Assembly (NCBI GenBank): GCA_035276685.1
Contig: DATELK010000065.1
Coordinates: 10,387-74,386, forward strand
Reading direction: 5' to 3'
Length of the DNA: 64,000 nucleotides
From: Pyrinomonadaceae bacterium
GTDB lineage: Bacteria > Acidobacteriota > Blastocatellia > Pyrinomonadales > Pyrinomonadaceae
Shown here: piece by piece, positions 9,934-56,872 of the stretch
Layout: every line of letters starts with the position of its first letter
Numbering within the stretch: position 1 is the first letter of the stretch
The notes under the pieces: generated by a model
The model's input: only the letters and a program-made list of their open reading frames with translations
Database searches by the model: none
What the model was told of the DNA's origin: nothing
Made by a program: the position numbers and the translations under genes

Positions 9934-10025
9934 GTCAGTGCCGCCTGCGGTAGCGGGCGGGTCTTTAGTCTCAAACATGACTCTAGACAAACTAATACCC
10001 GCCCGCTACCGCAGGCGGTACTGAC
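9934..10025. repeat. 92-bp palindromic element, copy 1 (29-bp GC-rich inverted arms, conserved loop)
   Basis: Left arm GTCAGTGCCGCCTGCGGTAGCGGGCGGGT, 34-nt loop containing CATGACTCTAG, right arm ACCCGCCCGCTACCGCAGGCGGTACTGAC. There is one G:T position in the stem. It lies 27 nt downstream of the wzt stop, so it could also act as a terminator hairpin. Confidence 0.9.
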
Positions 10026-10052
10026 CTGTTTGTCGTCTCTGAAACTGACCTA

Positions 10053-11312
10053 TTATATCTTTGAGACTATCTGGCCGAGAGCGTCTTCGCTCTGTTCACC
10101 TTCGGGCGCGCTCTTAATCGTCCAGTCGTGCGGCGTGAAGAATCGCCCGCGCACTATGCGGCCGGGGTCTACGCGCATCATGGCGCAGTGATACTGCCAC
10201 TCTATGCCTTCGAGGGGCTCTCGCTGCACGACGGTCGCGTCCAGGTGGTAGATGCCCGGCTGAAGCCCAAGCTCGGGGCAGGTGAATTCCACCACTCCCG
10301 CGCCCGGCTCAACGTCCAGCCTTCTCTCGCTCGATTCCGTAGTCAGCTGGCAGTGCAGCTCGTCGTCGCCCGCGTAGAAGAATAGCTCGAAGACAGCATC
10401 CTCTACGCGCTCGTGCGCGAAGTACTCTACCGACACCGAGAGCGGCCCGCCCGTCTTAAAGGCAGTTGTTTCCTGGCCCAACGAGTCGCGGAAGACGACG
10501 GAGCGAACCTCTATCCTGCGCGTGTTGATGCTGGCTCCCGATGGCGGCGGCTGCGAGGCCGTGAAGCTTCCGGCGATGCGCTGGTATTCGGCAATGACTT
10601 CGCGCGGCGGGCCGCTCGCGGCGACCTCTCCGCGCTGAATGAGCAGCACGCGGTCGCACAGTCGCTCCACGGCACCTAGGTCGTGCGAGACGAAGACGAT
10701 GGTTTTTCCGCCGTGCTTGAGGTCTGTGATTCTCTGTAGACACTTGGCCTGAAAGGCAGCGTCGCCTACGGCCAGCACTTCGTCCAGCAGCAGCACGTCC
10801 GGGTCAAGGTGCGCCGCGATTGAGAAGCCTAAGCGCACGTACATGCCCGAAGAGTAGCGCTTGACGGGAACGTCTATGAACTGCCTGATGCCTGCGAACT
10901 CGACTATCTGTTCCAGTTTCTCGGTTATCTCACGCCGCCGCATCCCTAAGATTGAGCCGCTCAGGTAGACGTTCTCTCTTCCGGTAAGCTCCGGATGAAA
11001 GCCCGAGCCGACTTCTATTAAAGCCGAGAGCCGCCCGTTGATGGTTATCTGTCCTGAGGTCGGCGTGGTGATGTTCGACAGGAGCTTGAGAATGGTGGAC
11101 TTGCCCGCGCCGTTATGGCCTATGATGCCGAGCGCCTCGCTTCTTTCCACTTCAAACGTGACATCGCGCAGCGCCCAGAAGTCCTGCGAGCCTCGCCTGA
11201 GCCGTCTCAGGACGCGCGAGACGGGGTTGCCACCTGCCGCGCTTTCATCATCATTTGCGCGCACCTTGTATCTCTTCGAGACGTGGTCGAATTTGAGGTC
11301 AATCATAGCCAT
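10053..11312 (-). CDS. wzt: Polysaccharide ABC exporter ATP-binding protein with C-terminal carbohydrate-binding extension (Wzt/TagH type)
   Basis: Walker A GHNGAGKST, signature YSSGMYVRL, Walker B LLLDEVLAVGD. A ~150-aa C-terminal beta-rich extension resembles the Wzt C-terminal glycan-binding domain. It lies next to an ABC-2 permease. Confidence 0.85.
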   Translation of the reverse strand: MAMIDLKFDHVSKRYKVRANDDESAAGGNPVSRVLRRLRRGSQDFWALRDVTFEVERSEALGIIGHNGAGKSTILKLLSNITTPTSGQITINGRLSALIEVGSGFHPELTGRENVYLSGSILGMRRREITEKLEQIVEFAGIRQFIDVPVKRYSSGMYVRLGFSIAAHLDPDVLLLDEVLAVGDAAFQAKCLQRITDLKHGGKTIVFVSHDLGAVERLCDRVLLIQRGEVAASGPPREVIAEYQRIAGSFTASQPPPSGASINTRRIEVRSVVFRDSLGQETTAFKTGGPLSVSVEYFAHERVEDAVFELFFYAGDDELHCQLTTESSERRLDVEPGAGVVEFTCPELGLQPGIYHLDATVVQREPLEGIEWQYHCAMMRVDPGRIVRGRFFTPHDWTIKSAPEGEQSEDALGQIVSKI

Positions 11313-11330
11313 CTTCGCTTAAGCCGCACG

Positions 11331-12215
11331 TTAGATAACGTCGGCGATTGTCGCCTCCACGCGCTTGAAGTAGACGTAAGATATTGCGAGCAGCACGAGC
11401 GACGTGACAAGCGCTACGCCCAGAGAGACGAAGTCCGGCGGCTCGCCCTGAAGCATCACGCGGCGAAAGCTCTCTATGATTCCGGCCATAGGGTTGAGCA
11501 TGTAAAAGGGGCGCAGCCAAGCGGGCACAGCGCTCAGTGGATAAACGACCGGCGAGGCGAACATCCAGAGCTGCATAAGGAGCGGCATGGCCACGCCTAT
11601 GTCCCTAAAGCGCACCTGTGTCGCCGAGAAAAGGAGCGACACGGCCGTCGCAAAGCAGGTCAGGACGAGGACAATCGGAATGCTGTAGAGAGCCGTCCAA
11701 GTCAACTGTACCTGGTAGTAAACCAGTAGCCCCGCGAACACGATGCTCGCCACCAGAAAATCGAAGAGCGCCGCGATGACGTAAGTCAGCGGAAGAATCT
11801 CTCGCGGGAAGTAGACCTTCGTCACGAGGTCTGCGTGACTGACGAGCCCGTTCGTCGAATTAACGAGCGCCGTGGAAAAGTATGTCCAGGGCAGCAGCGC
11901 AGAGTAGGCGAAGACAGCGTAAGGGATGCCGTCGCTGGGCATGCGCGCTATGTAAGAGAAGATGAGCGTGTAGATGAGCATCAGCGAGAGCGGTTGCAGC
12001 ACGGCCCACGCCACGCCCAGCACAGACTGCTTGTAGCGCACCTTGACGCGATGCACGCTCAGCGTGTAGAGCAAGTCCCTGTAGTGCGAGAGCTTCACCA
12101 CGTCGCGCAGGACGCCCGCGAAGGAGACGGCCGGCGCGCCTATGATGGTCACGCGCCGCTCTCTTGAATCGTAAGCGGCGTCCCGCAACTGCTCCGATGT
12201 GACATCCGAACTCAT
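11331..12215 (-). CDS. wzm: Polysaccharide ABC exporter permease (ABC-2 type, Wzm/TagG type)
   Basis: 294 aa with about 6 TM helices. The N-terminal region LSVHRVKVRYKQSVLGVAWAVLQPL is typical of ABC-2 permeases. It sits immediately upstream of wzt. Confidence 0.85.
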   Translation of the reverse strand: MSSDVTSEQLRDAAYDSRERRVTIIGAPAVSFAGVLRDVVKLSHYRDLLYTLSVHRVKVRYKQSVLGVAWAVLQPLSLMLIYTLIFSYIARMPSDGIPYAVFAYSALLPWTYFSTALVNSTNGLVSHADLVTKVYFPREILPLTYVIAALFDFLVASIVFAGLLVYYQVQLTWTALYSIPIVLVLTCFATAVSLLFSATQVRFRDIGVAMPLLMQLWMFASPVVYPLSAVPAWLRPFYMLNPMAGIIESFRRVMLQGEPPDFVSLGVALVTSLVLLAISYVYFKRVEATIADVI

Positions 12216-12234
12216 CTCTGGACTCTTTATCTCC

Positions 12235-13257
12235 TTATGACGTGCGGCTCATGGCAAGGGAATCGTTGCCTGCCTCGACCGCGCTCTTCGCGCTCTTATT
12301 CTCTTTGTAAAAGTGCTTGCCGTAGAAGAAGCCCGCGAAGTCCCAGACGGCCAGCTCATCCGAAAAGCTTTCGGCGCGGTTCTTATCGAAACGAATCACA
12401 CGCGAGACTTTACTGATTGCACCGCGCACGGCTTTACCCACAATCCAACGCGGCACTCCCAGAAGGTAAGCCACTGGCATGCGCCGCTCCCTGTCAATCA
12501 CTCCCTGAGAGACGCCGCGCCAGAAGCTCCACTGACGAAAGTATCGCTTCGTCAGCCTCTCCGGCGGGATGTAGTGATAGATGACGAGCCCCGGAAGATA
12601 GAACCCACGCGCGCCCGCCTCTCTCAAGCGGTGATACATGTCCTCGTCCTCGCACGAGAGAAGATGCTTGTCCGTGCGGCCGAGCTTAGTCGTGTAGAGC
12701 CCAACCTTTTCCAAGATAGAGCGGCGCAGCACGGAGTTTCCGCCCATCAGTATGCCGGGGTAGTCGTCGTCAAAGGGGCAGCGACTATCGCCTCCGTCAA
12801 CCCATCCGACAACTCCCCTGTAAGAGAGCGGGAACCATTCGGGACACTCCATGCCCCAGCGAGGCGCGCAGGGGCCGCCTATGAAATCGACGCTCGCGTC
12901 GGAGAAGGCCTCGTGAGCCTGCTCGTACCACCCGGCGTCAATCTCTTCGTCGTCGTCAATCATGCCGACGATATCGCCGTCCGTGGCGCGTATCCCTGCG
13001 TTTAAGGCGGGAGACCTTCCCTGCTCTTTTTCCAGAAGATAAGAGACGCGCTCCTGCCCGTGCCTCTCTATGTAGTCTTCAACGACACGGCGCGTCTCGT
13101 CCTTAGAGTTGTTGTCAACGACAGTGACGCGCACCGTGAGGCCTTCGGGCACGCGCGCCGCCATCAGGCTGTCGAGCGTGCGCTTGAGCATCTCGTGCCT
13201 GTTATAGGTAGGCACAATCACGTCCAGCTTCATCGTCGAATCGGTCTTCGGGCTCAT
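12235..13257 (-). CDS. Glycosyltransferase family 2
   Basis: KLDVIVPTYNRHEMLKRTLDSL, VVDNNSKD, IDDDEE (DxD). Confidence 0.85.
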   Translation of the reverse strand: MSPKTDSTMKLDVIVPTYNRHEMLKRTLDSLMAARVPEGLTVRVTVVDNNSKDETRRVVEDYIERHGQERVSYLLEKEQGRSPALNAGIRATDGDIVGMIDDDEEIDAGWYEQAHEAFSDASVDFIGGPCAPRWGMECPEWFPLSYRGVVGWVDGGDSRCPFDDDYPGILMGGNSVLRRSILEKVGLYTTKLGRTDKHLLSCEDEDMYHRLREAGARGFYLPGLVIYHYIPPERLTKRYFRQWSFWRGVSQGVIDRERRMPVAYLLGVPRWIVGKAVRGAISKVSRVIRFDKNRAESFSDELAVWDFAGFFYGKHFYKENKSAKSAVEAGNDSLAMSRTS

Positions 13258-13260
13258 TCC

Positions 13261-14268: not shown

Positions 14269-14279
14269 AGAAATTTCGG

Positions 14280-15377: not shown

Positions 15378-15431
15378 CTTTGAGTGTGGGTGTCTGGTAA
15401 GAGCCTAATCGTGTGCGTCGCTCTTCTGCTT

Positions 15432-17030: not shown

Positions 17031-17101
17031 GTGGGCCTTTTAGGGGGCGAGACATCTCGCGGGCCGAGTATACACTGCGGCGGGCCACTTTTGCGAAAAG
17101 C

Positions 17102-19368: not shown

Positions 19369-19387
19369 AAATCTTGAAATAGATGCT

Positions 19388-19426
19388 AAAAGGCACTAAG
19401 CAGAGATAATTTGCTTAGTGCCTTTT
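19388..19426. terminator. Bidirectional intrinsic terminator hairpin between convergent genes
   Basis: AAAAGGCACTAAGCA - 9-nt loop - TGCTTAGTGCCTTTT. The stem is a perfect 15 bp flanked by an A-run and a T-run. It lies between the stop at 19368 (+) and the stop at 19454 (-). Confidence 0.8.
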
Positions 19427-19453
19427 ATTGTGACGCGTCCTTGATTTATCTCT

Positions 19454-22156
19454 TCAAATACGAATCTCTTCAAGGCAGGCCCTGACCTCGCGGGCCAGCA
19501 CCTGTACGTGCGGCTCGTCGTACATGTTCAGGTGATTGCCGGGCACTATGCGAACGTCCACGCCGCCCGAGGCCAGCTCCTTCCATCCCTTGTCGCGGCC
19601 GAGCGCGCGGAAGACGGGCTGGGCTCGGGTGCGAAAGAGCGTGACGCGCCCCTCATAGCGCCGCGCCTCGTAGCCCGCAAGGGCCTGAAACAGCGCTTCG
19701 CTCACGCGGCGATGATTGTCCGGCAGAAGCGCCACGTCCAGCATGTCTTCCAGATTTTCCCTGTGGGCTTCTACGTGCAGCGGGCCAATGCGGCTGAAGA
19801 GGTTTCGCCCGACCCGCTTCAGGTGCCTTTTGACATCGGCGGCGACTTCGCGCGGCTGTCGCTTGAAGACGTGGTCGGCCAGCCAGTAGGGAAGGTTCAG
19901 CGCCGTGTGGAGAAGGCGAGCCGCGCTGATTCCCTGCTCATTCGAGCCCGGCGCTTCTTCGTCCAGCACGGCGAGGAGCGCTATCTCCTCTCCGCTCTCC
20001 TGTAGCTGCTGGGCCATCTCGAAGGCTATCACGGCCCCGAGCGAGTAGCCGCCGAGTATGTACGGCCCCGAGGGTTGAACGCTTCGCACAATCTCCACGT
20101 AATGCGAGGCCATGGCGCGCATGTCCGTGAAGGGCTCTTCAAGGCCGTCGAGCCCGCGCGCCTGTATGCCGTAGAAGGGATGGGCCGAGCCGAGGTAGCG
20201 CGCAAGCGTGCCGTAACCGAAGACCTCGCCGCCTATCGGGTGCATGAAGAAGATAGGCGTGCGCTCGCCCTCTGTCTGAATCTCCACGAGCGAAGACCAC
20301 CTCTTCTCGGGCACATGCGACTCTATGACTCGCGCCAGGTGCTCTATAGTCCCTTCGTGTATGAGGGCCGAGAGCGGGATGTTCTTGCCAAGGCTGTCAT
20401 GAACCTCAAGCAGCATGCTGACGGCCAAAAGCGAGTCGCCGCCAAGCTCGAAGAAGTTGTCGCGCACGCCTATGGGAGAGATGCCTAGCACGCCTTCCCA
20501 GATTTCCTTAAGCTCGCTCTCAATCTGTGTGCGCGGTGACTCCGTGGCTTCGCCCGGCTCGTGTATGGGGCTCGGGCTGTGCGCGGCGAGCGAGAGGCGG
20601 TCGACTTTTCTGCTCGGCGTCAGCGGCATCGTCTCAAGATGCACGAAGCCCGAGGGCAGCATGTAATCCGGCAGCCTCGCCGCCAAAAACTCCCGCAGCT
20701 CTTTGGCCGTGGCAGTTTTTCCGGCATCCTTCGAGACCCAGTAGGCCATGAGCCGCTTGTTGCCCGAAGCATCCTCGCAGACGAGCGCCACGCTCTGGCC
20801 CACAGCTTCGTGCTGCGAGAGCGCCGATTCTATCTCGCCAAGCTCTATGCGAAAGCCGCGTATCTTGACCTGGCTGTCGGCCCTTCCCAGAAACTCTATG
20901 TCGCCGGAGGGCAGCACGCGCCCGAGGTCTCCAGTCCTGTAGAGCCTTGCGCCGCCGTGAATGTCGAAGGGGTCAGGGACGAATCTCTCTGCGGTCAATT
21001 CGGGCCGCTCAAGGTAGCCGCGCGCAAGGCAGACGCCGCCCACGTAAATCTCGCCCGCCTCGCCTGCCCCGACCCTTTGGAGTCGCTCGTCTAGCACGTA
21101 AACCCGTGCGCCGTCTATAGGCCTGCCTATGGGAACGGAAGAGGCGTTTGCCGAAAGCTCTCGCGTGTCGCAGAAGGTGGCGTCGGCAGCCGCTTCCGAC
21201 GAGCCGTAGAGGTTAAGAAGCGTCGTCTCAGGCGCGCTCTTTCTAAAGCGCTCGCAAAGCTCTGGCGAAAGCGCCTCGCCGCTGCTGACGCAGACCTTAA
21301 GCTGCGGCAGTCTTCGCCCAAGCTCCGGCTCCGCGTCCAGCATGGCGCGCAGGAGCGACGGCACGAGCACGATTCTCGTCACCTTCCGCCGCGCCAGAGT
21401 CTCTATAAGCCTGCGCACGTCCTTCACATCTTCATCGGGGATGATGACTAGAGGCACGCCTTTGAGGAGCGGCCCGAAAATCTCCCACACGGAATCTACG
21501 AAGCTGAGCGCAGTCTTCTGGCACAAGACCTCTCCGGTCTCGAAAGGAAAGGCGCGCCACATCCACTGGAAGCGATTGACCGCGCCCTTGTGCAAGCCCT
21601 GAACGCCTTTGGGCCTGCCCGTAGAGCCGGAGGTGTAAGCCACGTAAAGCAGATTTTCGCCCGTCAGCCCGGACGGCGGATTATCGGAGCGCGCGTCAGC
21701 CAGACGACCATCCATTTCATCCAGCACAATCACCCGCGCGTCGTGCTCTGTAAGCGTGCCGGAGAGTTTTTTCTCAGTCAGTAAAAACGTGGGACGCGCG
21801 TCCGCGAGCATGAAAGAGAGCCTCTGCTTCGGGTACGAGGGGTCGAGCGGAAGGTAAGCGCCGCCAGCCTTTATGACGGCGAGGATGGCCACGAGCATCT
21901 CAGCGGAGCGCTCCGCGTGAATGGCACAAAGGGTTTCGAGGCGAGCGCCAAGCGAAAGCAGGTGATGCGCCAGACGGTTCGCGCGCTCGTTCAGCTCTCG
22001 GTAGCTGAGCCGCTGCTCTTTGAAGTAAACGGCCACACTGTCAGGCGTGCGCTCTGCCTGCTCCTCGAAGAGTTGCTGTATGGATAAGGCTTGCGGCTCC
22101 CGCACTTGAATAAAGTTATCGGCTGACGAAGGATTGTATAGTTCGACTTTCAGCAT
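19454..22156 (-). CDS. Single-module NRPS-like protein: adenylation - thiolation (PCP) - thioesterase
   Basis: A-domain cores LSYRELNERANRLAHHL, YVAYTSGSTGRPKGV, NLYGSSE, YRTGDLGR, GRADSQVKIRGFRIELGEIE, PLTPSRKVDR. PCP motif FFELGGDSLLAV. TE motif GGYSLG. The track ORF extends to a TTG at 22282, but that TTG is part of a TTGACA-18-CATACT promoter-like motif, so ATG 22156 is preferred. Confidence 0.85.
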   Translation of the reverse strand: MLKVELYNPSSADNFIQVREPQALSIQQLFEEQAERTPDSVAVYFKEQRLSYRELNERANRLAHHLLSLGARLETLCAIHAERSAEMLVAILAVIKAGGAYLPLDPSYPKQRLSFMLADARPTFLLTEKKLSGTLTEHDARVIVLDEMDGRLADARSDNPPSGLTGENLLYVAYTSGSTGRPKGVQGLHKGAVNRFQWMWRAFPFETGEVLCQKTALSFVDSVWEIFGPLLKGVPLVIIPDEDVKDVRRLIETLARRKVTRIVLVPSLLRAMLDAEPELGRRLPQLKVCVSSGEALSPELCERFRKSAPETTLLNLYGSSEAAADATFCDTRELSANASSVPIGRPIDGARVYVLDERLQRVGAGEAGEIYVGGVCLARGYLERPELTAERFVPDPFDIHGGARLYRTGDLGRVLPSGDIEFLGRADSQVKIRGFRIELGEIESALSQHEAVGQSVALVCEDASGNKRLMAYWVSKDAGKTATAKELREFLAARLPDYMLPSGFVHLETMPLTPSRKVDRLSLAAHSPSPIHEPGEATESPRTQIESELKEIWEGVLGISPIGVRDNFFELGGDSLLAVSMLLEVHDSLGKNIPLSALIHEGTIEHLARVIESHVPEKRWSSLVEIQTEGERTPIFFMHPIGGEVFGYGTLARYLGSAHPFYGIQARGLDGLEEPFTDMRAMASHYVEIVRSVQPSGPYILGGYSLGAVIAFEMAQQLQESGEEIALLAVLDEEAPGSNEQGISAARLLHTALNLPYWLADHVFKRQPREVAADVKRHLKRVGRNLFSRIGPLHVEAHRENLEDMLDVALLPDNHRRVSEALFQALAGYEARRYEGRVTLFRTRAQPVFRALGRDKGWKELASGGVDVRIVPGNHLNMYDEPHVQVLAREVRACLEEIRI

Positions 22157-22252
22157 AAAGAAGAGGCACAGCTTAACCCTCGTTTCGTGTGCGACTAGGC
22201 GAGTAAAGGCAGACCGGGTAACAGGCTTTAGCGGCCCAACGGCGCGCTTGAG

Positions 22253-22282
22253 AGTATGGATTCTCAGGCGCACGCCTGTCAA
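22253..22282 (-). promoter_or_regulatory. Candidate sigma-70 promoter for the NRPS-like gene
   Basis: On the minus strand: TTGACA (22282..22277), 18-nt spacer, CATACT (22258..22253). Located in the gap downstream of the acyl-CoA ligase stop (22332). Confidence 0.35.
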
Positions 22283-22331
22283 GATTTATAGTCTTACGGC
22301 TCTGTTAAAAGGTGAGGTGGGCCAGGCGTGA

Positions 22332-24151
22332 TTACTCCGAAGCGCCGTAAAGCTCGTCAATCAGGTCAGAGTATTTCTCGTCGACTATGCGTCTTTTGAC
22401 CTTCAAGGTGGGCGTCAGCTCGCCGCCGTCAATGGTGAACTCTTCCGGCAGCAGGGCCACGCGGCGCACCCGTTCGTAATCGGCAAGCTCCGTAGTGAGC
22501 TGAATGATTTCGCGCTGGACTATCTTGACGGCTTCGGGCGCGCGGCTCAGCTCTGCGCGCCCTCGCGGCGGCTCCGAGCCGTTCTTCTGCATGGCTTCAG
22601 AGAGCGCTTCCCAATCGGGGACGATGAGCGCGGCGGGCTGCTTGCGGCCCGCTCCTATGACAACGACCTGGCTGACAAGCTCGCTCTGCTTGATGAGGCT
22701 CTCTACCAGTTGCGGCGCGACGTACTTGCCGTTCGAGAGCTTGAAGAGGTCTTTCTTGCGGTCTGTGATGTAGAGGTGGCCGCGCTCGTCCATGCGGCCA
22801 ACGTCGCCGGTCGCGAACCAGCCGTCCTTCAGCACTTCACTCGTCTCTTCCGGCTTGCCGTAATAGCCGCGCATGACGTTCGGCCCGCGCACCACTATCT
22901 CTCCGTCCTCCGCAATCTTCACTTCCATCCCCGGAAAGACCAAGCCGACAGAGCCCACCTGGTTATCCTCGGGGCGGTTGGCAGAGACGATGCAGGTCTC
23001 TGTCATGCCGTAGCCCTGAAGAATTGGAATGCCTGCGGCCATGAAGGAGAAGGAGAGCGTGGGCGAAAGCGGCGCGCCGCCCGAGACGAAGAAGCGCAGG
23101 CGGCCGCCTACGCCTTCGCGCCACTTTGAGAAGACGAGGCGGTCTGCCACAGACTGCTTGAACTTGAGCGAGAGGGGAATGCGCTCACGCTTGTCCTTCA
23201 ACTCCGCGTAGCGCAAACCCGTCCGCATGGCATCTTCAAAGACCTTTCGCTTCCAGCCTTTGGCGGACATACCGCGCTTGACTATCTTGTGATAGACCTT
23301 CTCGAAGAGCCTCGGCACGGCCGTCATAATCGTCGGGCGCACTTCGCGCAGGTGCTCGCCCACCTGGTCGAAGGAGGCAGAGTAATGCACGGAGACGCCC
23401 GTGTAGCAGAAGACGTAAAAGACCGCGCGCTCGAAGATGTGCGAAAGCGGCAGCACCGAAAGCGCCACGTCAGAAGTGTAGATGGGAAGCGAGCCCGCGA
23501 TTGAAAGGACGTTCGAGACGAAGTTGTTGTGCGAGAGCATCACGCCCTTAGGCTCGCCCGTAGTCCCGGAAGTGTAGATGACGGTCGCAAGGTCATCGAG
23601 GCTCACGGCTGAAAGAAATCGCTCGAAGGCTTCCGGCTCACGCTCTGCCCTGGCGCGTCCAAGCTCTTCCAGTTCTGAAAGCTTTCCGCCGCGCTCCACT
23701 CCTTCGTCCGCGCCTTCGTCAAAGAAGATGATTCGCTCAAGCTGCTCAAGGCCGTCGATTCCGGGCCGCGCGTGCTTGAAGACTTTTTTGCCCGAGACGA
23801 ACAGGAGCCGCGCGCCTGAATCCCCGAGGATGTAGCGCACCTGCTCCACGGCTTGCGTCGTGTAGATGGGAACGTTGACGGCACCGAGGCTCAGGATTGC
23901 GAGGTCAACGATTGACCATTCGGGGCGGTTCTCGGAAAGCAGCGCGACGCGGTCGCCGGGCTTGACGCCAAGCTCCGAGAGCCCCAGCGCGATACGCTCT
24001 ATGCGCGTGAGAAACTCCGAGGCAGAGATGCGCTCCCAGCGCCCGTCTCGCTTACGGTTAAGCGCGTCCGGCTTAGAGTGCTCGCGCACGCCCGACAGGC
24101 ACATCGCCGGAAGGGATTGAAAATCGGAGGCGGATTCTACCTTTTGACTCA

Positions 24152-24152
<1 letters not shown>
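22332..24152 (-). CDS. Long-chain acyl-CoA (AMP-forming) ligase, FadD/ACSL-like
   Basis: [63 protein letters not shown] at 24152 overlaps the UXS TGA (TGATG). The track start is the TTG at 24155. Confidence 0.85.
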
Positions 24153-26101
<1,949 letters not shown>

Positions 26102-26154
26102 CAGTAACCCCTCTTCCGTAGGGCAGATTATTAGAACAACGATTATTGAATCAA

Positions 26155-26574
26155 CTACTCGGGGAGCGCGCCGCCCGGCTTCAGCGCCAGCGTGCAGCGC
26201 GAGACGCACACCATACGGTCGCGCTCGTCCTTTATCTCTATGGCCCAGACGTTCATCTGTCTTCCTATGTAGACGGGACGGGCTTCCGCCACCACGCGGC
26301 CCTTGGTCACAGAGCGCAGGTGATTGGCGTTTATCTCTACGCCGACGGGCGTGTAGCGTGTCAGGTCTGTGTTGAGCGCCGCGCCGATTGAGGCGGCAGT
26401 TTCGGCAAGCACGACCGAGACGCCGCCGTGCAGGAGCCCCGTGTACTGGTGAACGCGCTCTGTGACAGGCATGGAGAGAACAACGCGGTCTCGCTCGGCT
26501 GCCTCAACCGTGATGTCCAGAGTCTCAAGGACAGTGTGGCCTCGTCTGCTTCGCAAAGTTTCAAGCACGTTCAT
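26155..26574 (-). CDS. Hotdog-fold thioesterase (PaaI / DHNA-CoA hydrolase family)
   Basis: 139 aa. ...ERDRVVLSMPVTERVHQYTGLLHGGVSVVLAETAAS... is typical of PaaI-type thioesterases. Confidence 0.75.
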   Translation of the reverse strand: MNVLETLRSRRGHTVLETLDITVEAAERDRVVLSMPVTERVHQYTGLLHGGVSVVLAETAASIGAALNTDLTRYTPVGVEINANHLRSVTKGRVVAEARPVYIGRQMNVWAIEIKDERDRMVCVSRCTLALKPGGALPE

Positions 26575-32524: not shown

Positions 32525-32613
32525 AATTAACAGGGATAGACAGGATAGACAGGATAAAGAAGAAGCAAGCTCTTCTCTTTTTATCCTGTCTATCCTGTCT
32601 ATCCCTGTTAATT
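32525..32613. repeat. CAGGAT-hairpin repeat, copy A (palindromic ~85-bp intergenic element)
   Basis: AATTAACAGGGATAGACAGGATAGACAGGATAAA ... TTTATCCTGTCTATCCTGTCTATCCCTGTTAATT. The arms match perfectly for about 33 nt, and each arm carries three CAGGAT motifs. It lies 14 nt downstream of the stop of 32627..33646. Confidence 0.9.
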
Positions 32614-32626
32614 TCTCTTCCTCAAT

Positions 32627-33646
32627 CTAAGCTTGTGTGGCGGATTTCTGGCCGGTGTTGAAGATGCGCCCGCGCGGCTCGCCCTCCGCGTCGCTGTAAT
32701 AGTTGATGACGGTCTGGAGGATGCCGTCCAGAGACATGCGCGGGCTGAAGCCCACGAGCGATTGAACCTTGGAGATGTCGGGAACCCTTCGAGGCATGTC
32801 CTCGAAGCCCTCTTCGTAAGCCTCGTCGTAAGGCACGTAGACAATCTCGGAGGATGAGCTGGTCAGAGCCTTGACGCGCTCGGCCAGCTCACCGATTGTC
32901 ACCTCTTCGTTGGAGCCTATGTTGAATACCTGCCCGACCGCCTCGTCATGCTCCATCAGGCCAATCAGCGCCTCCACCACGTCGCCCACGTAGCCGAAGC
33001 AGCGCGACTGTTTGCCGTCGCCGTAAACCGTGATGGGACGGCCCGCCATGGCCTGCTTGACGAAGGTCGGGATGACCATGCCGTACTGGCCCGTCTGTCT
33101 GGGGCCTACGGTGTTGAAGAGGCGCACCACTACCGTCGGCAGCCGTTTCTCGCGCCAGTAGGCGAGGGCCAGAAACTCGTCAATCGCTTTGGAGCAGGCG
33201 TAAGACCAGCGCCCCTTCGTCGTCGCTCCCATGACAAGCTGCCCGTCCTCTCGGAAAGGCACTTCCGTTGAGAGGCCGTAGACTTCCGAGGTGGAAGCTA
33301 TGAGCACCTTCTTCTTCTTCTTGTTGGCGAGCGAGAGCATGACCTCCGTGCCATGCACGTTGGTCTCTATGGTTCTGACGGGGCTCTCAACTATGAGCTT
33401 GACTCCGACGGCTGCGGCCAGATGAAAAATCACGTCGCACTGGTCTACAAGCTCGGCCATCACGGGCAGGTTGCTCACAGAATCAATCGTGTAGTGAAAG
33501 CGCGGCTGTTCCTTGAGGTGCGCGATGTTCAGGAAGCTTCCCGTGGAGAGGTCGTCGACGACGAAGACCTCGTCGCCGCGCTCAATGTAGGCGTCCGACA
33601 GATGAGAGCCTATGAAGCCCGCGCCGCCCGTAATCAACACTCGCAT
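32627..33646 (-). CDS. NAD-dependent nucleotide-sugar epimerase/dehydratase (extended SDR; UXS/ArnA-C-terminal-like clade)
   Basis: MRVLITGGAGFIGSHL, STSEVYG, RWSYACSKAIDE (YxxxK). The substrate cannot be assigned from the sequence. Confidence 0.75.
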   Translation of the reverse strand: MRVLITGGAGFIGSHLSDAYIERGDEVFVVDDLSTGSFLNIAHLKEQPRFHYTIDSVSNLPVMAELVDQCDVIFHLAAAVGVKLIVESPVRTIETNVHGTEVMLSLANKKKKKVLIASTSEVYGLSTEVPFREDGQLVMGATTKGRWSYACSKAIDEFLALAYWREKRLPTVVVRLFNTVGPRQTGQYGMVIPTFVKQAMAGRPITVYGDGKQSRCFGYVGDVVEALIGLMEHDEAVGQVFNIGSNEEVTIGELAERVKALTSSSSEIVYVPYDEAYEEGFEDMPRRVPDISKVQSLVGFSPRMSLDGILQTVINYYSDAEGEPRGRIFNTGQKSATQA

Positions 33647-36037: not shown

Positions 36038-37600
36038 CTAGTCCTGCGCCGGGGTCATAGCCGAACAGTCATAGACGCGCAGGGTAGCGCGGTCAAGCCT
36101 GCGGCATCTTCCCAGAAGCGCGCGAATGCCCTCGCCCTCGCGGCTGAAGAGCCTGGTTCTGTACGAGGGGATAACTACCATGCGGCCCGCTACCTCTTCC
36201 GGGGTCACGAGCCTGTACTTGCCCTTCTCGCGCACGTAGATTTGGTCTTCGTCAAAGGAGAGGTCAATAGGCCTGATTTTATAGTCGGGCCCGAGGTAGT
36301 GCTGGTAAATCTGCGCGCCGTTCATAAGCGCCTCGCGCTCGCCAATTACACCTTTGAGCCATGCTATGTCCTCGCGAGGCGCGGCGTCGTCCAGCATAGT
36401 GTGCAGCTTGCTTGCCCACGCGGTCGTCACCACCAATGCAGCCATGATAACTAAAAGGGCTGCGGCTGCCGTTGTCCTAGCGGGCCTTGCGGAAACGAAG
36501 CTGTCAACGGCAAGGCCTACCATGCAGGCGAGCGGCGCGAGCGCAGGCACGAGGTACTGCGGGACGAGCCCGAACGGAGTCACGACGATGATGATGATGG
36601 CGTAGACGACGCCTATCACCATGAAGGGGCCAAAGCTGCGCGTCTTCTCCCTGTGCGCGTAAAAGAGCCACGCGCAGGCCGCAATCACTGGCAGAGAGAT
36701 GGGCAGCAGGGTTAAGAAAGGCGCAAGCGTGCGGCGGTATTCCTGCCCCTGCAAAGACCTGTAAAAGATGACAATCGGCGTCTTGAAGAAAGAGGCCTTG
36801 AGGACGGAGCCCGGCCAGAAGAGAACGACGAACAGCGCCGTGAGCCCCGTGCCAATCAACACGTAGCGCCAGAAGCTGAGGCTCCTTATTCCTGAAACCC
36901 CGAGCGGCTTCCATATGAGAAGCGCTAGAAGAACAGCCGCCACCACCACCAGCCCCGTCTCAAGGCTCACGACCGTCAGCGCCACGGAGGCGCACAGCAG
37001 GAGGCCCGCCCTTCTGTCGCCGTCCTTTAACCAGCGGCTCAGGAAAGCCGCCGCGAGAGTCGTCCACACGGAGAGCCAGCCGTGATTCGATAGAGAGTAG
37101 AAGGCCAGATAGCTCAAGCCTATCCCGAAGACGAGAACGGCGAGCATGCCCGCGAGCGTGGGCGCGTCGGAAAGCTGTCGGTAGGCGTAAAAGAGCGCGC
37201 AGAGGAAAGCCAGAACTCCAAGAAGCTGTCCTATGCGTATGGCGCGGTCGCTCTCGGAATTAAGCAGAGGAGTCGTCGCGGCCGTCACGTAGGCTATGAA
37301 CGGAGGATGATAGTGCCTCAGGAGCAGCGGGTCTTTCTGCTCGTCATACTGCGGCGGGTAGGCTGGCTCCACGCCTTTGCGCTTGGAGTTGATGAACCCG
37401 AAGAACTCAAGGGGCGAGAGCGAGCCACGGTCTATGTAGTTAGTCACGAGCCCGAGGCGCGAGGCGTTATAGTAATCCACCTCGTCCAGATTCATGATGG
37501 TGTTGTGCAGGGGCCACAGCGCGAGGATGACCGCGACCCAGCCCACGAGGATTAAGCCTCCGAGCAGCTTATATGAAGAATGTTGACGGTTATCTTTCAC
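36038..37600 (-). CDS. GT-C fold membrane glycosyltransferase (ArnT/PMT-like, GT39/83-like)
   Basis: 520 aa and polytopic. The first-loop acidic motif NLDEVDYYNASRLG resembles the ArnT/PMT DE motif. It sits with a polyprenol-P sugar synthase-like GT2 two genes upstream. Confidence 0.55.
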   Translation of the reverse strand: MKDNRQHSSYKLLGGLILVGWVAVILALWPLHNTIMNLDEVDYYNASRLGLVTNYIDRGSLSPLEFFGFINSKRKGVEPAYPPQYDEQKDPLLLRHYHPPFIAYVTAATTPLLNSESDRAIRIGQLLGVLAFLCALFYAYRQLSDAPTLAGMLAVLVFGIGLSYLAFYSLSNHGWLSVWTTLAAAFLSRWLKDGDRRAGLLLCASVALTVVSLETGLVVVAAVLLALLIWKPLGVSGIRSLSFWRYVLIGTGLTALFVVLFWPGSVLKASFFKTPIVIFYRSLQGQEYRRTLAPFLTLLPISLPVIAACAWLFYAHREKTRSFGPFMVIGVVYAIIIIVVTPFGLVPQYLVPALAPLACMVGLAVDSFVSARPARTTAAAALLVIMAALVVTTAWASKLHTMLDDAAPREDIAWLKGVIGEREALMNGAQIYQHYLGPDYKIRPIDLSFDEDQIYVREKGKYRLVTPEEVAGRMVVIPSYRTRLFSREGEGIRALLGRCRRLDRATLRVYDCSAMTPAQD

Positions 37601-37643
37601 AGGTTCTACAGAACAGAAGAAACGGCTCGTCTTTCGGAATCCT

Positions 37644-38348
37644 TTAGCGTTTACGGCAGAGCACCTGATACTGCGTGCCTAAGGGCAGACGTGATACGTG
37701 CGGCTCTATGAAACGCAGCGCTCGCAGCATTCTGGGAAAGATGAACAGGAAGTCTGTGCGTAGAATCTCGAAGCCTCCGTCCTGAAGAAGGCGGCGGGCT
37801 TCCGGCGGAGTCAGCGTGATGGCGTCGCGGTCAAACGGGATGCGGCTCATCACGTAACGCGTCCCCGGATTCCAGGGATTATTCTCCCAGAAGGAGAAGA
37901 GCCCGCCCGGACGAAGCGAGCGATGTATGTAGTCAACGGCCCCTCTGCGCTGCGCGGGCGGGATGTGATGAAAGACGCCGTTACAGAAGCTGAGGTCTAT
38001 CTGCTCTTTGGGCTTGTGCTCGTCGAGCAGCATGAACTGTGTCTTGTCCGAGCCGTGATGGGCTCTGGCGACCTCAAGCGATTTGGCGGAATTATCAACG
38101 CCCGTCACAGACTCTGCCCCCACAATCTCATGCAGGAAGGGCGCGGAGGTGCCTGTGCCGCAGCCGAAATCAAGAGCCCGTGCAGGCCGCTCGCCCAGTT
38201 TCGCCAGACAGTCCGCGAGCCACATCGCACGGCCGCGCGCGAAGTAGTGCTTGTCCTCGCCGGAGACGGCCAGGCCCTGCTCAAGCGCCGCGTCATACTC
38301 GGTCGCGTAGCCGTCGAACTCGGCTTTATAAGAAGAATGAGTGCTCAT
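37644..38348 (-). CDS. Class I SAM-dependent methyltransferase
   Basis: ALDFGCGTGTSAPFL, FCNGVFHHI. ATGA overlap with the upstream GT2 stop. Confidence 0.8.
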   Translation of the reverse strand: MSTHSSYKAEFDGYATEYDAALEQGLAVSGEDKHYFARGRAMWLADCLAKLGERPARALDFGCGTGTSAPFLHEIVGAESVTGVDNSAKSLEVARAHHGSDKTQFMLLDEHKPKEQIDLSFCNGVFHHIPPAQRRGAVDYIHRSLRPGGLFSFWENNPWNPGTRYVMSRIPFDRDAITLTPPEARRLLQDGGFEILRTDFLFIFPRMLRALRFIEPHVSRLPLGTQYQVLCRKR

Positions 38349-42912: not shown

Positions 42913-42963
42913 GTTCGGATTCCTATGAGAGGAGACTCTATGGGGCAAAGGTGAGCGAAGGCT

Positions 42964-44412: not shown

Positions 44413-44439
44413 ATCAGCAACTTAAAGCGCAGGGCGAGA

Positions 44440-45528: not shown

Positions 45529-45582
45529 AAATCAAGAAGAACAATTCTATTAGCGAACGGCCGCAAATTCAAAGCGGACTCA

Positions 45583-45666
45583 AACAGGATGGACAGGATA
45601 AGCAGGATAAAAGAAGAATAAATGCTTTCTCTTTTTATCCTGTGCATCCTGTCCATCCCTGTTAAT
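45583..45666. repeat. CAGGAT-hairpin repeat, copy B
   Basis: AACAGGATGGACAGGATAAGCAGGATAAAAGA ... TCTTTTTATCCTGTGCATCCTGTCCATCCCTGTTAA. The arms are imperfect. The TAA stop of 45662..46573 is the TTAA of the repeat. Confidence 0.85.
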
Positions 45667-50945: not shown

Positions 50946-51007
50946 TCAAAGCCCGCCATTCTGGCCATAGAGATTAAAAAGCAAGTCATTCAGTATATAA
51001 CGGATTC

Positions 51008-51088
51008 TAACAGGGATGGACAGGATAGACAGGATGAAAGTGAAAGCTATTTCTTCTTTATCCTGTTCATCCTGTCCATCCCTGTTAA
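51008..51088. repeat. CAGGAT-hairpin repeat, copy C
   Basis: TAACAGGGATGGACAGGATAGACAGGATGAAAG ... TTTATCCTGTTCATCCTGTCCATCCCTGTTAA. It supplies the TAA stop of 51085..52296. Confidence 0.85.
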
Positions 51089-52296: not shown

Positions 52297-52310
52297 CTAA
52301 AGCGTATTCA

Positions 52311-52389
52311 AACAGGGATGTGCAGGATGAACAGGATAAAGAAGAGATGCTTTATCTTTTATCCTGCCTATCCTGTCCATCCCTGTTAA
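52311..52389. repeat. CAGGAT-hairpin repeat, copy D
   Basis: AACAGGGATGTGCAGGATGAACAGGATAAAGAAGA ... TTTTATCCTGCCTATCCTGTCCATCCCTGTTAA. The last 13 codons of 52352..53383 (EINRDGQDRQDKR) are read from this repeat. Confidence 0.85.
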
Positions 52390-53383: not shown

Positions 53384-53435
53384 AATTGATTCTTCTTCTA
53401 AACCGGGGCTGTGAGAACTACTCGCTCATCAGAGG

Positions 53436-54719
53436 CTATTTAATGAGCCGGGAAAGATACTGTTCCAGAACCCGCGTCTGCTCTTCTCTTGAGAATTCTT
53501 CGACCTTTTGCCTGACGGAAAACGCTATACGTCCCCGTGCCTGCTTCTCCTTTATCCACTCTCTCAGGCGCTCCGCGATTTGATTAACGTCGCTTGTCAC
53601 AAGCCCGAGCCCACGGCTTTCGATTAACTCGGCCGCCACGTCGCCCGAGGGGCCCACGGCCAGTATGGGACGGCCCGCCCCTATGTACTCGAAAAGCTTT
53701 CCAGTATATACGCCTTTGTGCTCGGGGTCATTCCAGAGAAGCAGCAGAAGCACGTCCGCCTCCGTCTGCATCCGAAGCGATTGCCTATAAGGAACAGGGT
53801 CGTTAACCTCGACGACCTGCTCTACGCCGTGCTCGTCAACCAGTTCCCTCACCCGCTGTAGGAACGAGCCGTAGAAGGCGACCTCCACCTTCTTCATCTC
53901 CCCGCCAAGCTCTTTCAAAGCGGCGAAGAGCGGCGAAGGGTCTTGCCTTCCCTCGTAGACTACGCCCGTGTATAGAATCCTGACCGGCTCGTTCGCGGAA
54001 GACGTGCGCTCGTCTCTTACAGGATAGTCGGACGGGTCGAAGCCGTTCATCACTATGACGGGCTCTCTCTTATATTTCGTCCTGAGCGTAGCGGCCAGAG
54101 GCTCAGAGACGGTGACGAGCCCTGCCGCAGAACCTAGCACGCTTCTCTCCAACCTTCTCTCCACACGCTCGCGCAGGCGAGGCTGGTCATAGTACTGGTG
54201 GTCGACCCACAGGTCTCTCAAATCCGCCACCCACGGCACGCGGTACTTCTTAGCCAGATGTCGTGCGACCAAAAGCGTAGAGGGCGGCGGAGAGCTTGCC
54301 AATATAATGTCTGGCCGCCAGTCCTTTAAGAAATGCGCGGCGCTTCTGACGGCGTAAGGGAACCAGCCTATGTTGGCGTCAGGGAAATAGACGAAGGTTC
54401 TGAGCGCGAACCTGACTCCGCTCTTAAGGGCAGAGCCTAAGCCGCTCTGTCGGACAGCAGCCTTTTCACCGCTCTTCACAGCAGAAGGCGCGTCTTTCGA
54501 GACGACTTCGACGGGCTTTCGCACGTTGAGCCAGCGCGTGTAGACGACTCTCTCTTCTGGAATCTCAAGCGGCAGAGTTCGCGGGAAGGGTTGGTCTTGC
54601 GCGGCAATCACCCGCACGTCGTGACCGGCCTTGAGTAGATACTTGGCCGTCTTTCCGACGCGCACGCCGCCGATGCTGTTAAAGGGCGGGAAGGCATAAG
54701 AGACTATCAAAATCCGCAT
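53436..54719 (-). CDS. Glycosyltransferase family 4
   Basis: MRILIVSYAFPPFNSIGGVRVGKTAKYLLKAGHDVRVI (GT-B N-terminal domain). Confidence 0.8.
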   Translation of the reverse strand: MRILIVSYAFPPFNSIGGVRVGKTAKYLLKAGHDVRVIAAQDQPFPRTLPLEIPEERVVYTRWLNVRKPVEVVSKDAPSAVKSGEKAAVRQSGLGSALKSGVRFALRTFVYFPDANIGWFPYAVRSAAHFLKDWRPDIILASSPPPSTLLVARHLAKKYRVPWVADLRDLWVDHQYYDQPRLRERVERRLERSVLGSAAGLVTVSEPLAATLRTKYKREPVIVMNGFDPSDYPVRDERTSSANEPVRILYTGVVYEGRQDPSPLFAALKELGGEMKKVEVAFYGSFLQRVRELVDEHGVEQVVEVNDPVPYRQSLRMQTEADVLLLLLWNDPEHKGVYTGKLFEYIGAGRPILAVGPSGDVAAELIESRGLGLVTSDVNQIAERLREWIKEKQARGRIAFSVRQKVEEFSREEQTRVLEQYLSRLIK

Positions 54720-54737
54720 GCTGAGAGAGGGAGACCT

Positions 54738-56708
54738 CTAGAACTCTACCTTAAACTGCTCTGTCCAGCGAATCAGGTTCAGCCAGCGCCACACCCTGAA
54801 GTCAAAAGAGCGCCTGCCTTCGAGTATCTCTTCCCACTCGCGCCTCACGTGCGACAGGTTCAGGACGGGGATACTCCGAGCCGCGTCGCTTGCGAAAACC
54901 TGTTCGACCCAGGGCTTGAGCGCGGCGAGCCAGGAGCGCTCGGGCGTGGCAAAGCCTATCTTGTCCCTGCGCTCAAGAATAGCTTCGGGGACGATGCCGC
55001 GCATGGCCTGACGGAAGACGGATTTTGAAGTCCCGTCCGGGGCTATCAGGTACTCTTCCGGCAGACTGTAGATGAACTCGACCAAGGGTGTAGTTAAAAA
55101 CGGCACGCGGCTCTCGACGGAATGGGCCATCGAGTTGCGGTCTTCGTAGCGCAGCAGCATGGGCAGGCTGCTATCCACAAGCGTGTCGTGAAGCTGCTCT
55201 TGCAGGAGTCTCTGGCCGCGGCTTTTAAAGGGCTGTCTGGGCTCTACTCCCCTTTGGGCAAACCAGCGCTCGTTGAGCCACGAAGGGACGGCTCCATTCT
55301 GCGTCGCGTGTCTGACAAGGCGGCGTATGCTGGTCGGCAGCAGCGCCCCTCCGGCGCTCGCCATCAGATTTATCCCCTTCATCTGCGGCAGCGTCTCGAC
55401 CTGCTTGATAAAGCGATTGGCCTCCATCAAGCGCCCCTTTCGCAGCAGGGAGGCGACGCGCGCAGTCATATAGAAGGGATAGCCAGCGAGCAGCTCGTCC
55501 GCGCCCTGCCCGTCGAGCATGACCTTGATTCCGGCCTCGTGCGCCAGACGAAAAACGCGGTACTGGGCATAGATGCTGGTGCTGCCGAAGGGCTCGTCCT
55601 GCGTTCCTATGAGACGGTCTATGTCCTCGGTCAGCTCTTCAATAGTCGGGCGCACTTTATGAGCATGCGCGCCCGCGTCCTGTATGACTAAATCCACCCA
55701 GCGCTCTTCGCTCACGGCCGGGTCGTCCGCCGTGTAGCTGAAAGTATGTATCTCAAGGCCGGGATTCAGGTGGCGCATGGCCGTCACTATGGCCGAAGAA
55801 TCTATCCCGCCCGAAAGCGCCGTGCCTACAGCCACGTCGCTTCTCAGGTGCAAGCCTATGCTCTCAAGGAAAAGCTCTCTGAGCCTCGCGGCAGCTTCGT
55901 CAAATGAGAGGTCTGCGTTCGTATTAAGGTCAACTTGCCAGTAGCGCTGAAGGCGCGGCCTTACGTCTTTATCCCCGAGCGTCAACAACAGGAAGTGCGA
56001 GGCCGGAAGCTGTCTAATCTCGGCGAACGCGCTCTCGGTTCCGTAGTCCGTGATTCCGAACCGGAGATAATCATAAACCCTGTCGGGATTGACCTGTCTC
56101 TTTACGCCGAAGCATTCGAGCAGCACCTTTATCTCGGAGGCGAAGGCGAAGCGCTCGCCGTCGTCAACGTAATAGAGAGGCTTAATCCCGAACGGGTCGC
56201 GCGCCAGAAAAAGCCTCTTCTCCCGCCTGTCCCACAGGGCGAAGGCCCACATGCCTATGAAGCGCTGTAGACAATCCACGCCCCAGCGCTGGTACGCGGC
56301 TAAGATGACTTCCGTGTCCGTGCCCGTGCGGAAAGCGTAGCCCTCGCGCTCAAGCTCCGCCCGCAGCTCTATGTAGTTATAGATTTCGCCGTTGAAGATA
56401 ATCCAGCAGTTACCGTCAGCGCTCTGCATGGGCTGATGGCCCGCGCGCGAGAGGTCAAGAATTGAGAGGCGGCGAAAGCCTAAAGCCAGATTGAACGGCC
56501 CGTCCGTAGAGCCGCTTATCTGAGGCTCACTTATGCCCTCTATCGTGTCACTCCCGACGAAGGCGTGCGCGCGTCCCGTCAGTGTATCGGCAAGCAGATG
56601 GCCTTCGTCGTCCGGCCCGCGATGGCGCAGGACGCGTGCCGCCCGCTCAAGAGCCGACGCGTCTACCTGTTTGCCGCCCGCGTAATGTATGCCGAAGATG
56701 CCGCACAT
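54738..56708 (-). CDS. asnB: Asparagine synthase (glutamine-hydrolysing) family amidotransferase (second copy)
   Basis: MCGIFGIHY Ntn-Cys start and SGGIDSS PP-loop. First gene of the long minus-strand block. Confidence 0.85.
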   Translation of the reverse strand: MCGIFGIHYAGGKQVDASALERAARVLRHRGPDDEGHLLADTLTGRAHAFVGSDTIEGISEPQISGSTDGPFNLALGFRRLSILDLSRAGHQPMQSADGNCWIIFNGEIYNYIELRAELEREGYAFRTGTDTEVILAAYQRWGVDCLQRFIGMWAFALWDRREKRLFLARDPFGIKPLYYVDDGERFAFASEIKVLLECFGVKRQVNPDRVYDYLRFGITDYGTESAFAEIRQLPASHFLLLTLGDKDVRPRLQRYWQVDLNTNADLSFDEAAARLRELFLESIGLHLRSDVAVGTALSGGIDSSAIVTAMRHLNPGLEIHTFSYTADDPAVSEERWVDLVIQDAGAHAHKVRPTIEELTEDIDRLIGTQDEPFGSTSIYAQYRVFRLAHEAGIKVMLDGQGADELLAGYPFYMTARVASLLRKGRLMEANRFIKQVETLPQMKGINLMASAGGALLPTSIRRLVRHATQNGAVPSWLNERWFAQRGVEPRQPFKSRGQRLLQEQLHDTLVDSSLPMLLRYEDRNSMAHSVESRVPFLTTPLVEFIYSLPEEYLIAPDGTSKSVFRQAMRGIVPEAILERRDKIGFATPERSWLAALKPWVEQVFASDAARSIPVLNLSHVRREWEEILEGRRSFDFRVWRWLNLIRWTEQFKVEF

Positions 56709-56746
56709 TTGGAATCGTATTTAAGCTGCGTCGAGATTGGTTTGAC

Positions 56747-56775
56747 AGAATAAACGTTTCAATGCCGATTTGCAA
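56747..56775 (-). promoter_or_regulatory. Candidate sigma-70 promoter for the minus-strand polysaccharide block
   Basis: On the minus strand: TTGCAA (56775..56770), 17-nt spacer, TATTCT (56752..56747), about 40 nt upstream of the asnB ATG at 56708. Confidence 0.35.
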
Positions 56776-56780
56776 AAACA

Positions 56781-56872
56781 GGTCAGTACCGCCTGCGGTA
56801 GCGGGCGGGTTATTAGATAAGCATGACTCTAGCCCAACTGATACCCGCCCGCTACCGCAGGCGGTACTGACC
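56781..56872. repeat. 92-bp palindromic element, copy 2
   Basis: GGTCAGTACCGCCTGCGGTAGCGGGCGGGT - 32-nt loop with CATGACTCTAG - ACCCGCCCGCTACCGCAGGCGGTACTGACC. Same orientation and homologous loop as 9934..10025. Confidence 0.9.

Follow-up and report, generated by a model that had tools for sequence, protein, structure and literature searches.

A REPIN-type hairpin family, probably mobilised in trans by an HUH/Y1 transposase, as the source of paired palindromes at a Pyrinomonadaceae glycan cluster

Why should two nearly identical 92-bp palindromes lie in direct orientation at the two ends of a long co-directional run of polysaccharide genes? The question is raised by a 64,000-nt stretch of a Pyrinomonadaceae genome (contig DATELK010000065.1, positions 10,387 to 74,386, assembly GCA_035276685.1; hereafter the window), in which one palindrome (copy A) follows the last gene of a 46.7-kb minus-strand block and the other (copy B) precedes the first. 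A preliminary description of the window took the pair to bracket the block exactly and proposed, among other options, a recombination or boundary site, an insulator, a terminator or a repeat resembling a miniature inverted-repeat transposable element (MITE). Our analysis indicates that the palindromes very probably belong to a REPIN-type family of miniature hairpins (hairpin-forming doublets of repetitive extragenic palindromic, REP, units) that is moved in trans by an HUH/Y1 enzyme, the window copies being independent insertions.

Both palindromes were found where they had been reported. A 29-nt arm, GTCAGTRCCGCCTGCGGTAGCGGGCGGGT, matches four window sites with 0 mismatches (0 matches in 100 shuffles), two at each copy, and the distance of 27 nt between copy A and the wzt stop codon (10053) was confirmed. 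The two spacers indeed share a motif, CATGACTCTAG, in the same orientation, and the peptide SVPPAVAGG can be read in both of the spurious open reading frames (ORFs; 9830..10024 and 56582..56875). Copy B stands 73 nt upstream of the start codon of the asnB-like gene and ~5 nt from its candidate −35 element (TTGCAA, minus strand), as read from the sequence. It is a plain family member; copy A is atypical, its left side being devoid of the family's CAG extension. A search of the whole window against Rfam returned no match. Coordinates are collected in Table 1.

Aligned over all copies, the arm is a composite unit in which a foot, (ACAG)GTCAG(A/T)A, is followed by a 20-nt imperfect hairpin and then GT. 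The hairpin, CCGCCTGC-GGTA-GCGGGCGG, has an 8-bp stem that includes one T.G wobble and a 4-nt loop, and every arm is a short imperfect palindrome able to form a hairpin on its own. Two inverted arms and a variable spacer fold into one long hairpin (−91.9 kcal/mol, z = −9.7); the 71 complete elements of the genome show the arrangement expected of a REPIN, namely two inverted REP units, a short spacer and a single hairpin. The 29-nt inverted arms of the preliminary description are real, although the family repeat reaches further out than they do (AAAAACAG-GTCAG...CTGAC-CTGTTTTT). The conserved ends of the family read AAAAACAG-GTCAG(A/T)A and are rich in A on the 5′ and in T on the 3′ side. What had been taken for a free loop is itself structured: spacers are 16-38 nt long and their ends self-pair (attagttaag...cttaactaat) around an 11-nt core. 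This core is found in either orientation across the genome (GACTC in 27 and GAGTC in 23 of 71 spacers), which leaves no particular meaning to the shared orientation of the window copies.

Arms and spacers differ sharply in their variability. The arms are near-invariant (on average 1.7 differences per 29 nt); 217 out of 258 carry at most one mismatch, and a two-state polymorphism accounts for one of the variable positions. Arms within one element covary, position 6 (A/T) being concordant in 62/71. The spacers, on the other hand, are distinct in 70 out of 71 elements. We infer that replication is limited to copies whose arms are intact; differences in the arms would then be confined to terminal branches and those in the spacers would build up along the whole genealogy. 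Direct repeats of 2-8 bp at the element ends, as a target-site duplication would leave, were found in 0/64 elements. At the tail of contig C113 and the head of C166, REPIN spacers are broken after ..CTAG/TTAG by a shared sequence (AAGCAGTCTCATAAATA...), possibly the end of an insertion sequence (IS) that targets the spacer.

The family is abundant in its host, a metagenome-assembled genome (MAG) of 5.42 Mb in 245 contigs (58.7% GC). The 22-nt arm core returned 265 genome matches against 0 for a reversed control. At a tolerance of 4 mismatches in 29 nt the count is 258 arms: 71 complete elements inside contigs, 29 internal solo arms and a remainder at contig ends. Since 121 out of 490 contig termini end in an arm, the repeat lies behind about a quarter of all assembly breaks. 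We estimate ~160 elements at a mean spacing of one per 34 kb. At that density a gap of at least 46.8 kb has a probability of ~0.25 and about two copies are expected per 64-kb window, so the spacing of the window copies is ordinary; the same contig has further copies 1.6 kb and 6 kb ahead of the window and another past its end. The elements are intergenic, 53/71 having zero overlap with a crude ORF map although the genome is ~90% coding. Their gene contexts are tandem in 35 cases, convergent in 14 and divergent in 8, and convergent-gene gaps hold 14 out of 57 elements (25%) compared to 13% of intergenic bases. High copy number, extragenic location and decayed singlets (the 29 solo arms) are the features of a REPIN population. 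The genome-wide arm search that the preliminary description proposed thus returned a high-copy intergenic repeat (~160), the very outcome it had named as contrary to a boundary element.

The comparison with related genomes, likewise proposed there, bears on the age of the two insertions. According to Pfam, the block is a large glycan cluster with Wzm/Wzt, many GT2/GT4 glycosyltransferases, Wzy_C proteins and sugar-nucleotide enzymes, along with two AsnB-like amidotransferases and an adenylation-thiolation-thioesterase (A-T-TE) module. In a genome of the same genus (G001) it is kept collinear at ~82-85% identity over 44.6 of 46.7 kb, and no arm is found in the 51-kb stretch examined around it. 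Site A is empty in G001 and in two more congeners (G002 and G003), with ~35 nt in place of the 134 nt of the window. Site B is empty in G001 (55 nt vs 500 nt), where the conserved sequence reaches window position 56777, at the element edge. The flanking intergenic DNA is too diverged from the congeners to place exact insertion boundaries or a target motif. Empty sites within a collinear block indicate that the block is older than the elements and that both copies are lineage-specific insertions. The claim that they bracket the polysaccharide genes exactly was also overstated, as glycan genes run on past both: beyond copy A the minus strand continues with two GT2 genes and a 2648-aa malectin/Kelch/GH115_C protein, and just above copy B there are sugar-nucleotide genes, an epimerase and a nucleotidyltransferase. 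Beside copy B, the divergent control region holds an array of ~12 phased 21-nt direct repeats (AAAATCGGTTCATACACTGCG-like), missing in G001, which has approximately one unit there.

A candidate mobiliser is found in relatives. Among public loci fetched by the arm, two (L043 and L053) have an ORF of 169-171 aa that is directly enclosed by inverted arms. Both match the Pfam family Y1_Tnp (PF01797), at 30.2 and 24.7 bits (cut-off 23), and the gene is arm-flanked in 9 further relatives. In the best orthologue of each relative the arms lie within 8-105 nt with their feet outward; this is the arm orientation of the 92-bp element, so that the gene occupies the spacer position. The L043 gene is accompanied by arrays of 7 upstream and 3 downstream arms, 51-56 nt apart. 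This locus (CAWBAT010000008.1:264001-272000) sits on a contig binned as 'Acidimicrobiia' in spite of its Pyrinomonadaceae-type arm-flanked Y1 gene, and is either mis-binned or a case of horizontal transfer of the whole unit.

The pairing of gene and hairpin extends beyond the exact arm sequence. In a wider sample, the best 80 species-level loci of a contig scan and nearly all from Blastocatellia-type acidobacterial MAGs, the exact arm stands on both sides in 24 loci, and 66 out of 72 full-flank loci have an inverted repeat of 12 nt or more shared between the two flanks (shuffles reached 10 nt at most). Variants keep the foot TCAG[AT]A constant and change the stem in a compensatory manner (CG<->GC, GC<->AT, CG<->TA). 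Across 41 genomes (40 relatives and the present one), the gene occurs in 11/20 arm-bearing and 2/21 arm-less genomes (Fisher P = 0.0025). Both arm-less carriers hold fragments, the one in G012 with a stop codon, and counting intact genes only gives P = 5e-5. In highly contiguous assemblies the match is perfect: the gene is present in G006 (4 contigs, 98 arm hits) and G013 (5 contigs, 23 hits) and absent in G004 (1 contig, 5 arm hits) as well as in G035 and G039 (0 hits).

The protein has 4941 database homologues, many of them labelled 'REP element-mobilizing transposase RayT' in IMG. Residues H95 and H97 (H95-x-H97), Y156 and Q161 (Y156....Q161) are invariant in 103 sequences, with 61 aa from H95 to Y156. 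The N-terminal residues W2, N3, R16, W21, G24 and D25 are invariant too and fall outside the Pfam match, which covers only residues 60-136. A profile search of PDB sequences with the gene family returned nothing at E <= 10, the kinship being visible by fold only: the top 30 Foldseek PDB matches of an AlphaFold2 model (predicted local distance difference test, pLDDT, 82.7) are all TnpA proteins of IS200/IS608/ISDra2 or the RAYT (REP-associated tyrosine transposase) structure 4ER8. With an HUH motif, a catalytic Tyr and a predicted IS200-type fold, the protein is assigned to the HUH/Y1 transposase superfamily.

How does this pair compare with known systems? Nunvar et al. (2010) are reportedly among those who treated REPIN/RAYT systems, which the Pyrinomonadaceae family resembles in many respects. 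Such systems consist of hairpin-forming REP doublets and REP-associated tyrosine transposases (PMC3116915, Bertels & Rainey 2011; PMC3337134). Shared features are the two inverted imperfect palindromes that join with a spacer into one long hairpin, tens to hundreds of extragenic copies with decayed singlets and no target duplication, a low-copy Y1/HUH gene bounded by the same repeats (a REPtron, seen here in the relatives) and a patchy, family-wide distribution that tracks the gene. The canonical 5′ GT[AG]G foot (PMC3733652, PMC6006769) is, however, missing; the foot here is GTCAG(A/T)A and GTAG falls within the arm hairpin, in its loop and 3′ stem, which sets the family apart from canonical class 2 GTAG-REPs. 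Unlike in REPIN/RAYT systems, the spacers are hypervariable, and the protein is too divergent for a sequence match to 4ER8, the structure of Escherichia coli TnpA-REP, scoring 25.9 bits against the NCBIfam model REP_Tyr_transpos (cut-off 80).

IS200/IS605 elements (IS608, ISDra2) share the HUH/Y1 fold and supply the best structural matches. They also have foot-plus-hairpin ends recognised on single-stranded DNA, leave no target duplication and do not need terminal inverted repeats. Their ends are asymmetric (left end vs right end), whereas one unit stands here in inverted orientation at both ends; there the whole IS multiplies, here a gene-less miniature, and the gene itself, unlike theirs, is kept at one copy or a few diverged paralogues per genome.

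The best fit, judged against the published description of motif, N-terminus and foot, is Class 3 TnpA-Y1. Quentin et al. (2018, PMC6006769) describe the class as rare, with most of its members in Planctomycetes, Acidobacteria and Proteobacteria. Its proteins combine a Y----Q motif with an N-terminus that is both extended and conserved, its genes are flanked by atypical hairpins with a CnGA foot, ~600 hairpins were counted in Solibacter usitatus, and its members were called 'possibly evolutionary intermediates' between IS200 and REP systems (all PMC6006769). The pair described here agrees in its acidobacterial host, the Y156...Q161 motif, the spacing from HUH to Y, the conserved N-terminal extension beyond the Pfam core, several flanking atypical hairpins, hundreds of hairpin copies per genome and the mix of IS and REPtron features. 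A CnGA-type foot is present as CAGA in the GTCAGAA variant, which is dominant in most relatives, but the commoner foot in the present genome is CAGT (about two thirds of its arms). The REPIN doublet form, the Pyrinomonadaceae family and a gene at the spacer position do not figure in PMC6006769. Tentatively, and at slightly less than even confidence, we suggest that the hairpins are a gene-less miniature of a Class 3 Y1 unit, from the group proposed as intermediate between IS200 and domesticated REP/RAYT. Three observations support this: the gene takes the exact place of the spacer, enclosed by the same inverted foot-plus-hairpin ends; gene and hairpins are kept together across a whole bacterial family with co-varying stems; and spacers are hypervariable between near-invariant arms.

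On this reading, a small HUH/Y1 tyrosine transposase mobilises the family in trans, most likely as single-stranded DNA and leaving no target duplication; IS200/IS608 TnpA and E. coli TnpA-REP serve as models for the presumed cut-and-paste or copy mechanism. The two window copies would have arisen independently and within this lineage, each in the nearest intergenic gap that tolerates insertion, in a glycan cluster that already existed: copy A landed just past the wzt stop codon and copy B immediately 5′ of the first gene's core promoter. A density of about one element per 34 kb, combined with restriction to intergenic DNA, then suffices to produce the apparent 46.7-kb bracket, which does not reflect a function at this locus.

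Several points weigh against this reading. The enzyme is missing from the assembly: tblastn of the relatives' arm-flanked gene against the genome returned nothing at E <= 1e-3, arm-terminated contig ends searched for the first and last codons of the gene yielded none and only ordinary spacers, and the gene was likewise not found in the other five genomes that represent the genus, among them G004 (one contig, 5 arm hits). Five PF01797 genes are present in the genome; none has an arm within 4 kb. In addition, a recent burst of whole-element copying would give many identical spacers and nearly all are unique, and the steps of transposition and cleavage are drawn from analogy. Finally, copy A carries the remnant of an outer shell (see below), so it may have hitch-hiked rather than been moved by a Y1 enzyme. 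As to the missing gene, many homologues are found on contigs of 0.58-1.1 kb and the present assembly has no contig shorter than 1026 nt, which makes dropout from the assembly plausible; the enzyme possibly exists in this genome and was lost from the assembly, perhaps via contig-size filtering.

The five Y1 genes of the genome were also considered by subtype. Those on C34 (RAYT-like, NF047646 95.7 bits) and C2 belong to subtypes that do not track arm copy number across relatives. The C2 gene is flanked by palindromes of its own, of GTCCCTACGGGAC type, and an IS200-like Y1 gene on C28 has CCGCAGCAAGCTGCGGGG at both ends. There may be several independent hairpin/Y1 pairs in this genome.

Could the ~160 copies instead be immobile relics, an orphan population left behind when the genus lost its transposase? 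The absence of the gene from all six genus genomes, the single-contig one included, speaks for this, as do the almost uniformly different spacers and the 29 solo arms. The extreme uniformity of the arms speaks against it, and both window copies are younger than the split from the congeners. In addition, the complete but gene-less G004 has only 5 arm hits, compared to 98 and 23 in the near-complete gene carriers G006 and G013, and assembly dropout offers a plausible account of the absence, homologues often lying on 0.6-1-kb contigs. We consider such an orphan population unlikely, yet far from negligible.

A further possibility, compatible with mobilisation by a Y1 enzyme, is that the copies were co-opted once in place, copy A as a wzt terminator or 3′ messenger RNA stabiliser and copy B as an upstream insulator of divergent promoters. 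The very stable hairpin would suit such a role; the arm plus the T-rich start of the spacer scores terminator-like on both strands, the A-rich 5′ and T-rich 3′ family ends resemble bidirectional terminators, and there is some enrichment between convergent genes. E. coli REP elements and BIMEs (bacterial interspersed mosaic elements) attenuate transcription and stabilise upstream messenger RNA (cited in PMC6006769, PMC3733652). However, the wzt transcript would have UUGGUG and no U-run after the full hairpin, the empty site of the relatives holds a small native hairpin followed by TTTGAT, an apparent remnant of that hairpin can still be read downstream of copy A, and at copy B there is no transcript to terminate. 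Co-option of these two copies appears rather unlikely.

Much less probable is a classical MITE, that is, a deletion derivative of a DDE-type IS moved via its terminal inverted repeats. Like a MITE, the element is small, intergenic and present in many copies, and it has long inverted repeats at its termini. A MITE-like outer shell encloses some copies (on C122, C155 and C199) and has left its remnant on copy A; it is bounded by the inverted repeats GGTAGTGGTTCAGTTT...AAACTGAACCACTACC, has direct repeats of 8-9 bp at the junctions and counts ~29 termini in the genome. Against this, the element's own ends have no target-site duplication, no DDE gene lies between any arm pair and the sole gene found there encodes a Y1/HUH transposase, and a foot plus hairpin with covarying stems corresponds to the way in which HUH enzymes recognise DNA. 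The shell itself is an element apart, which also encloses an unrelated second hairpin family. The 'MITE-like repeat' of the preliminary description holds good for a miniature, non-autonomous mobile hairpin and fails for the mechanism, which would be Y1/HUH rather than DDE.

The least credible reading takes the palindromes for functional borders or recombination sites of a polysaccharide island that can move or be replaced (through excision, cassette exchange or insulation). It can draw on two near-identical direct-orientation copies, one at either end of a long run of co-directional genes, and on the strain variability common among glycan loci. It is left with next to no weight by ~160 copies at ordinary spacing, random spacer orientation across the family, glycan genes past both copies, and the 46.6-kb block of G001, which is collinear, empty at both sites and free of the arm; copy A is missing from G002 and G003 too.

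The shell is seen at ~20 other places as well, its centre being either the GC-rich REPIN or the second hairpin family, and it may be either a nesting hot spot or a carrier. The second family is AT-richer, with arms of the form ...CAGGATNNACAGGAT... and the terminus ATCCTGTCCATCCCTGTTAAT, and four of its copies lie inside the glycan block. Its 16-mer ATCCTGTCCATCCCTG occurs 351 times genome-wide. The family rarely breaks contigs, and none of the Y1 genes of this genome is flanked by it.

The glycan cluster shows other differences from its G001 counterpart. A NAD-dependent epimerase/dehydratase gene is split by a ~985-nt LAGLIDADG_3 insert that is precisely missing from the G001 orthologue, and is probably an intein with a homing endonuclease. 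A methyltransferase gene has no counterpart in the G001 block, where ~1.4 kb of different sequence is found; a small cassette appears to have been replaced here within the locus. The cluster also encodes an A-T-TE protein (942 aa) resembling a nonribosomal peptide synthetase (NRPS) and a fatty-acyl-AMP-ligase-like protein (607 aa), which suggests an acylated or amino-acid-decorated polysaccharide.

Table 1. Location of the features discussed (window positions, unless a contig is named).
Feature	Location	Strand	Remarks
Malectin/Kelch/GH115_C protein, 2648 aa	1697..9643	-	On the block's strand, beyond copy A
Copy A (REPIN)	9934..10025		Arms 9934-9962(+), 9997-10025(-); spacer 9963-9996
Copy A arm hairpins, 20 nt each	9941-9960 and 9999-10018		
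Copy A right-hand extension	10026..10050		CTGTTTGTCGTCTCTG..AAACTGACC; outer-shell remnant; ends 2 nt before wzt stop codon
wzt-like ABC transporter ATPase	10053..11312	-	ABC_tran + Wzt_C; directly upstream of copy A on its transcript
NRPS-like and fatty-acyl-AMP-ligase-like genes	19454-24155	-	Within glycan cluster
NAD-dependent epimerase/dehydratase gene	24152-26209	-	LAGLIDADG_3 insert at ~24682-25668
Second hairpin family, four copies	32525-32630, 45583-45666, 51008-51088, 52311-52389		
Region differing from G001	37568-38343		Methyltransferase gene 37644-38348
Asparagine synthase-like amidotransferase (asnB-like)	54738..56708	-	First gene of minus-strand run
Copy B (REPIN)	56779..56874		Including CAG/CTA outer extension; arms 56782-56810(+), 56843-56871(-); spacer 56811-56842
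21-nt direct repeats	56989-57221		Beside copy B
Shell around intact REPIN	C122:39854-39952, C155:2136-2292, C199:81736-81892		
Y1 gene with own palindromes	C2:30480-30929		
IS200-like Y1 gene	C28:6382-6744		

In repeat-rich genomes, identical palindromes flanking an operon are to be expected by chance and are uninformative on island mobility. The repeat described here accounts for about a quarter of the contig breaks of its MAG and is probably the reason why its transposase gene escapes short-read assemblies. The gain is modest: a well-documented REPIN-like population for the little-studied acidobacterial Class 3 Y1 transposases, of which only a short description was previously available. If the hairpins are indeed miniatures of a Class 3 unit, the Pyrinomonadaceae would offer a natural series for following the change from an autonomous single-strand transposon to a REPIN population with a low-copy gene.

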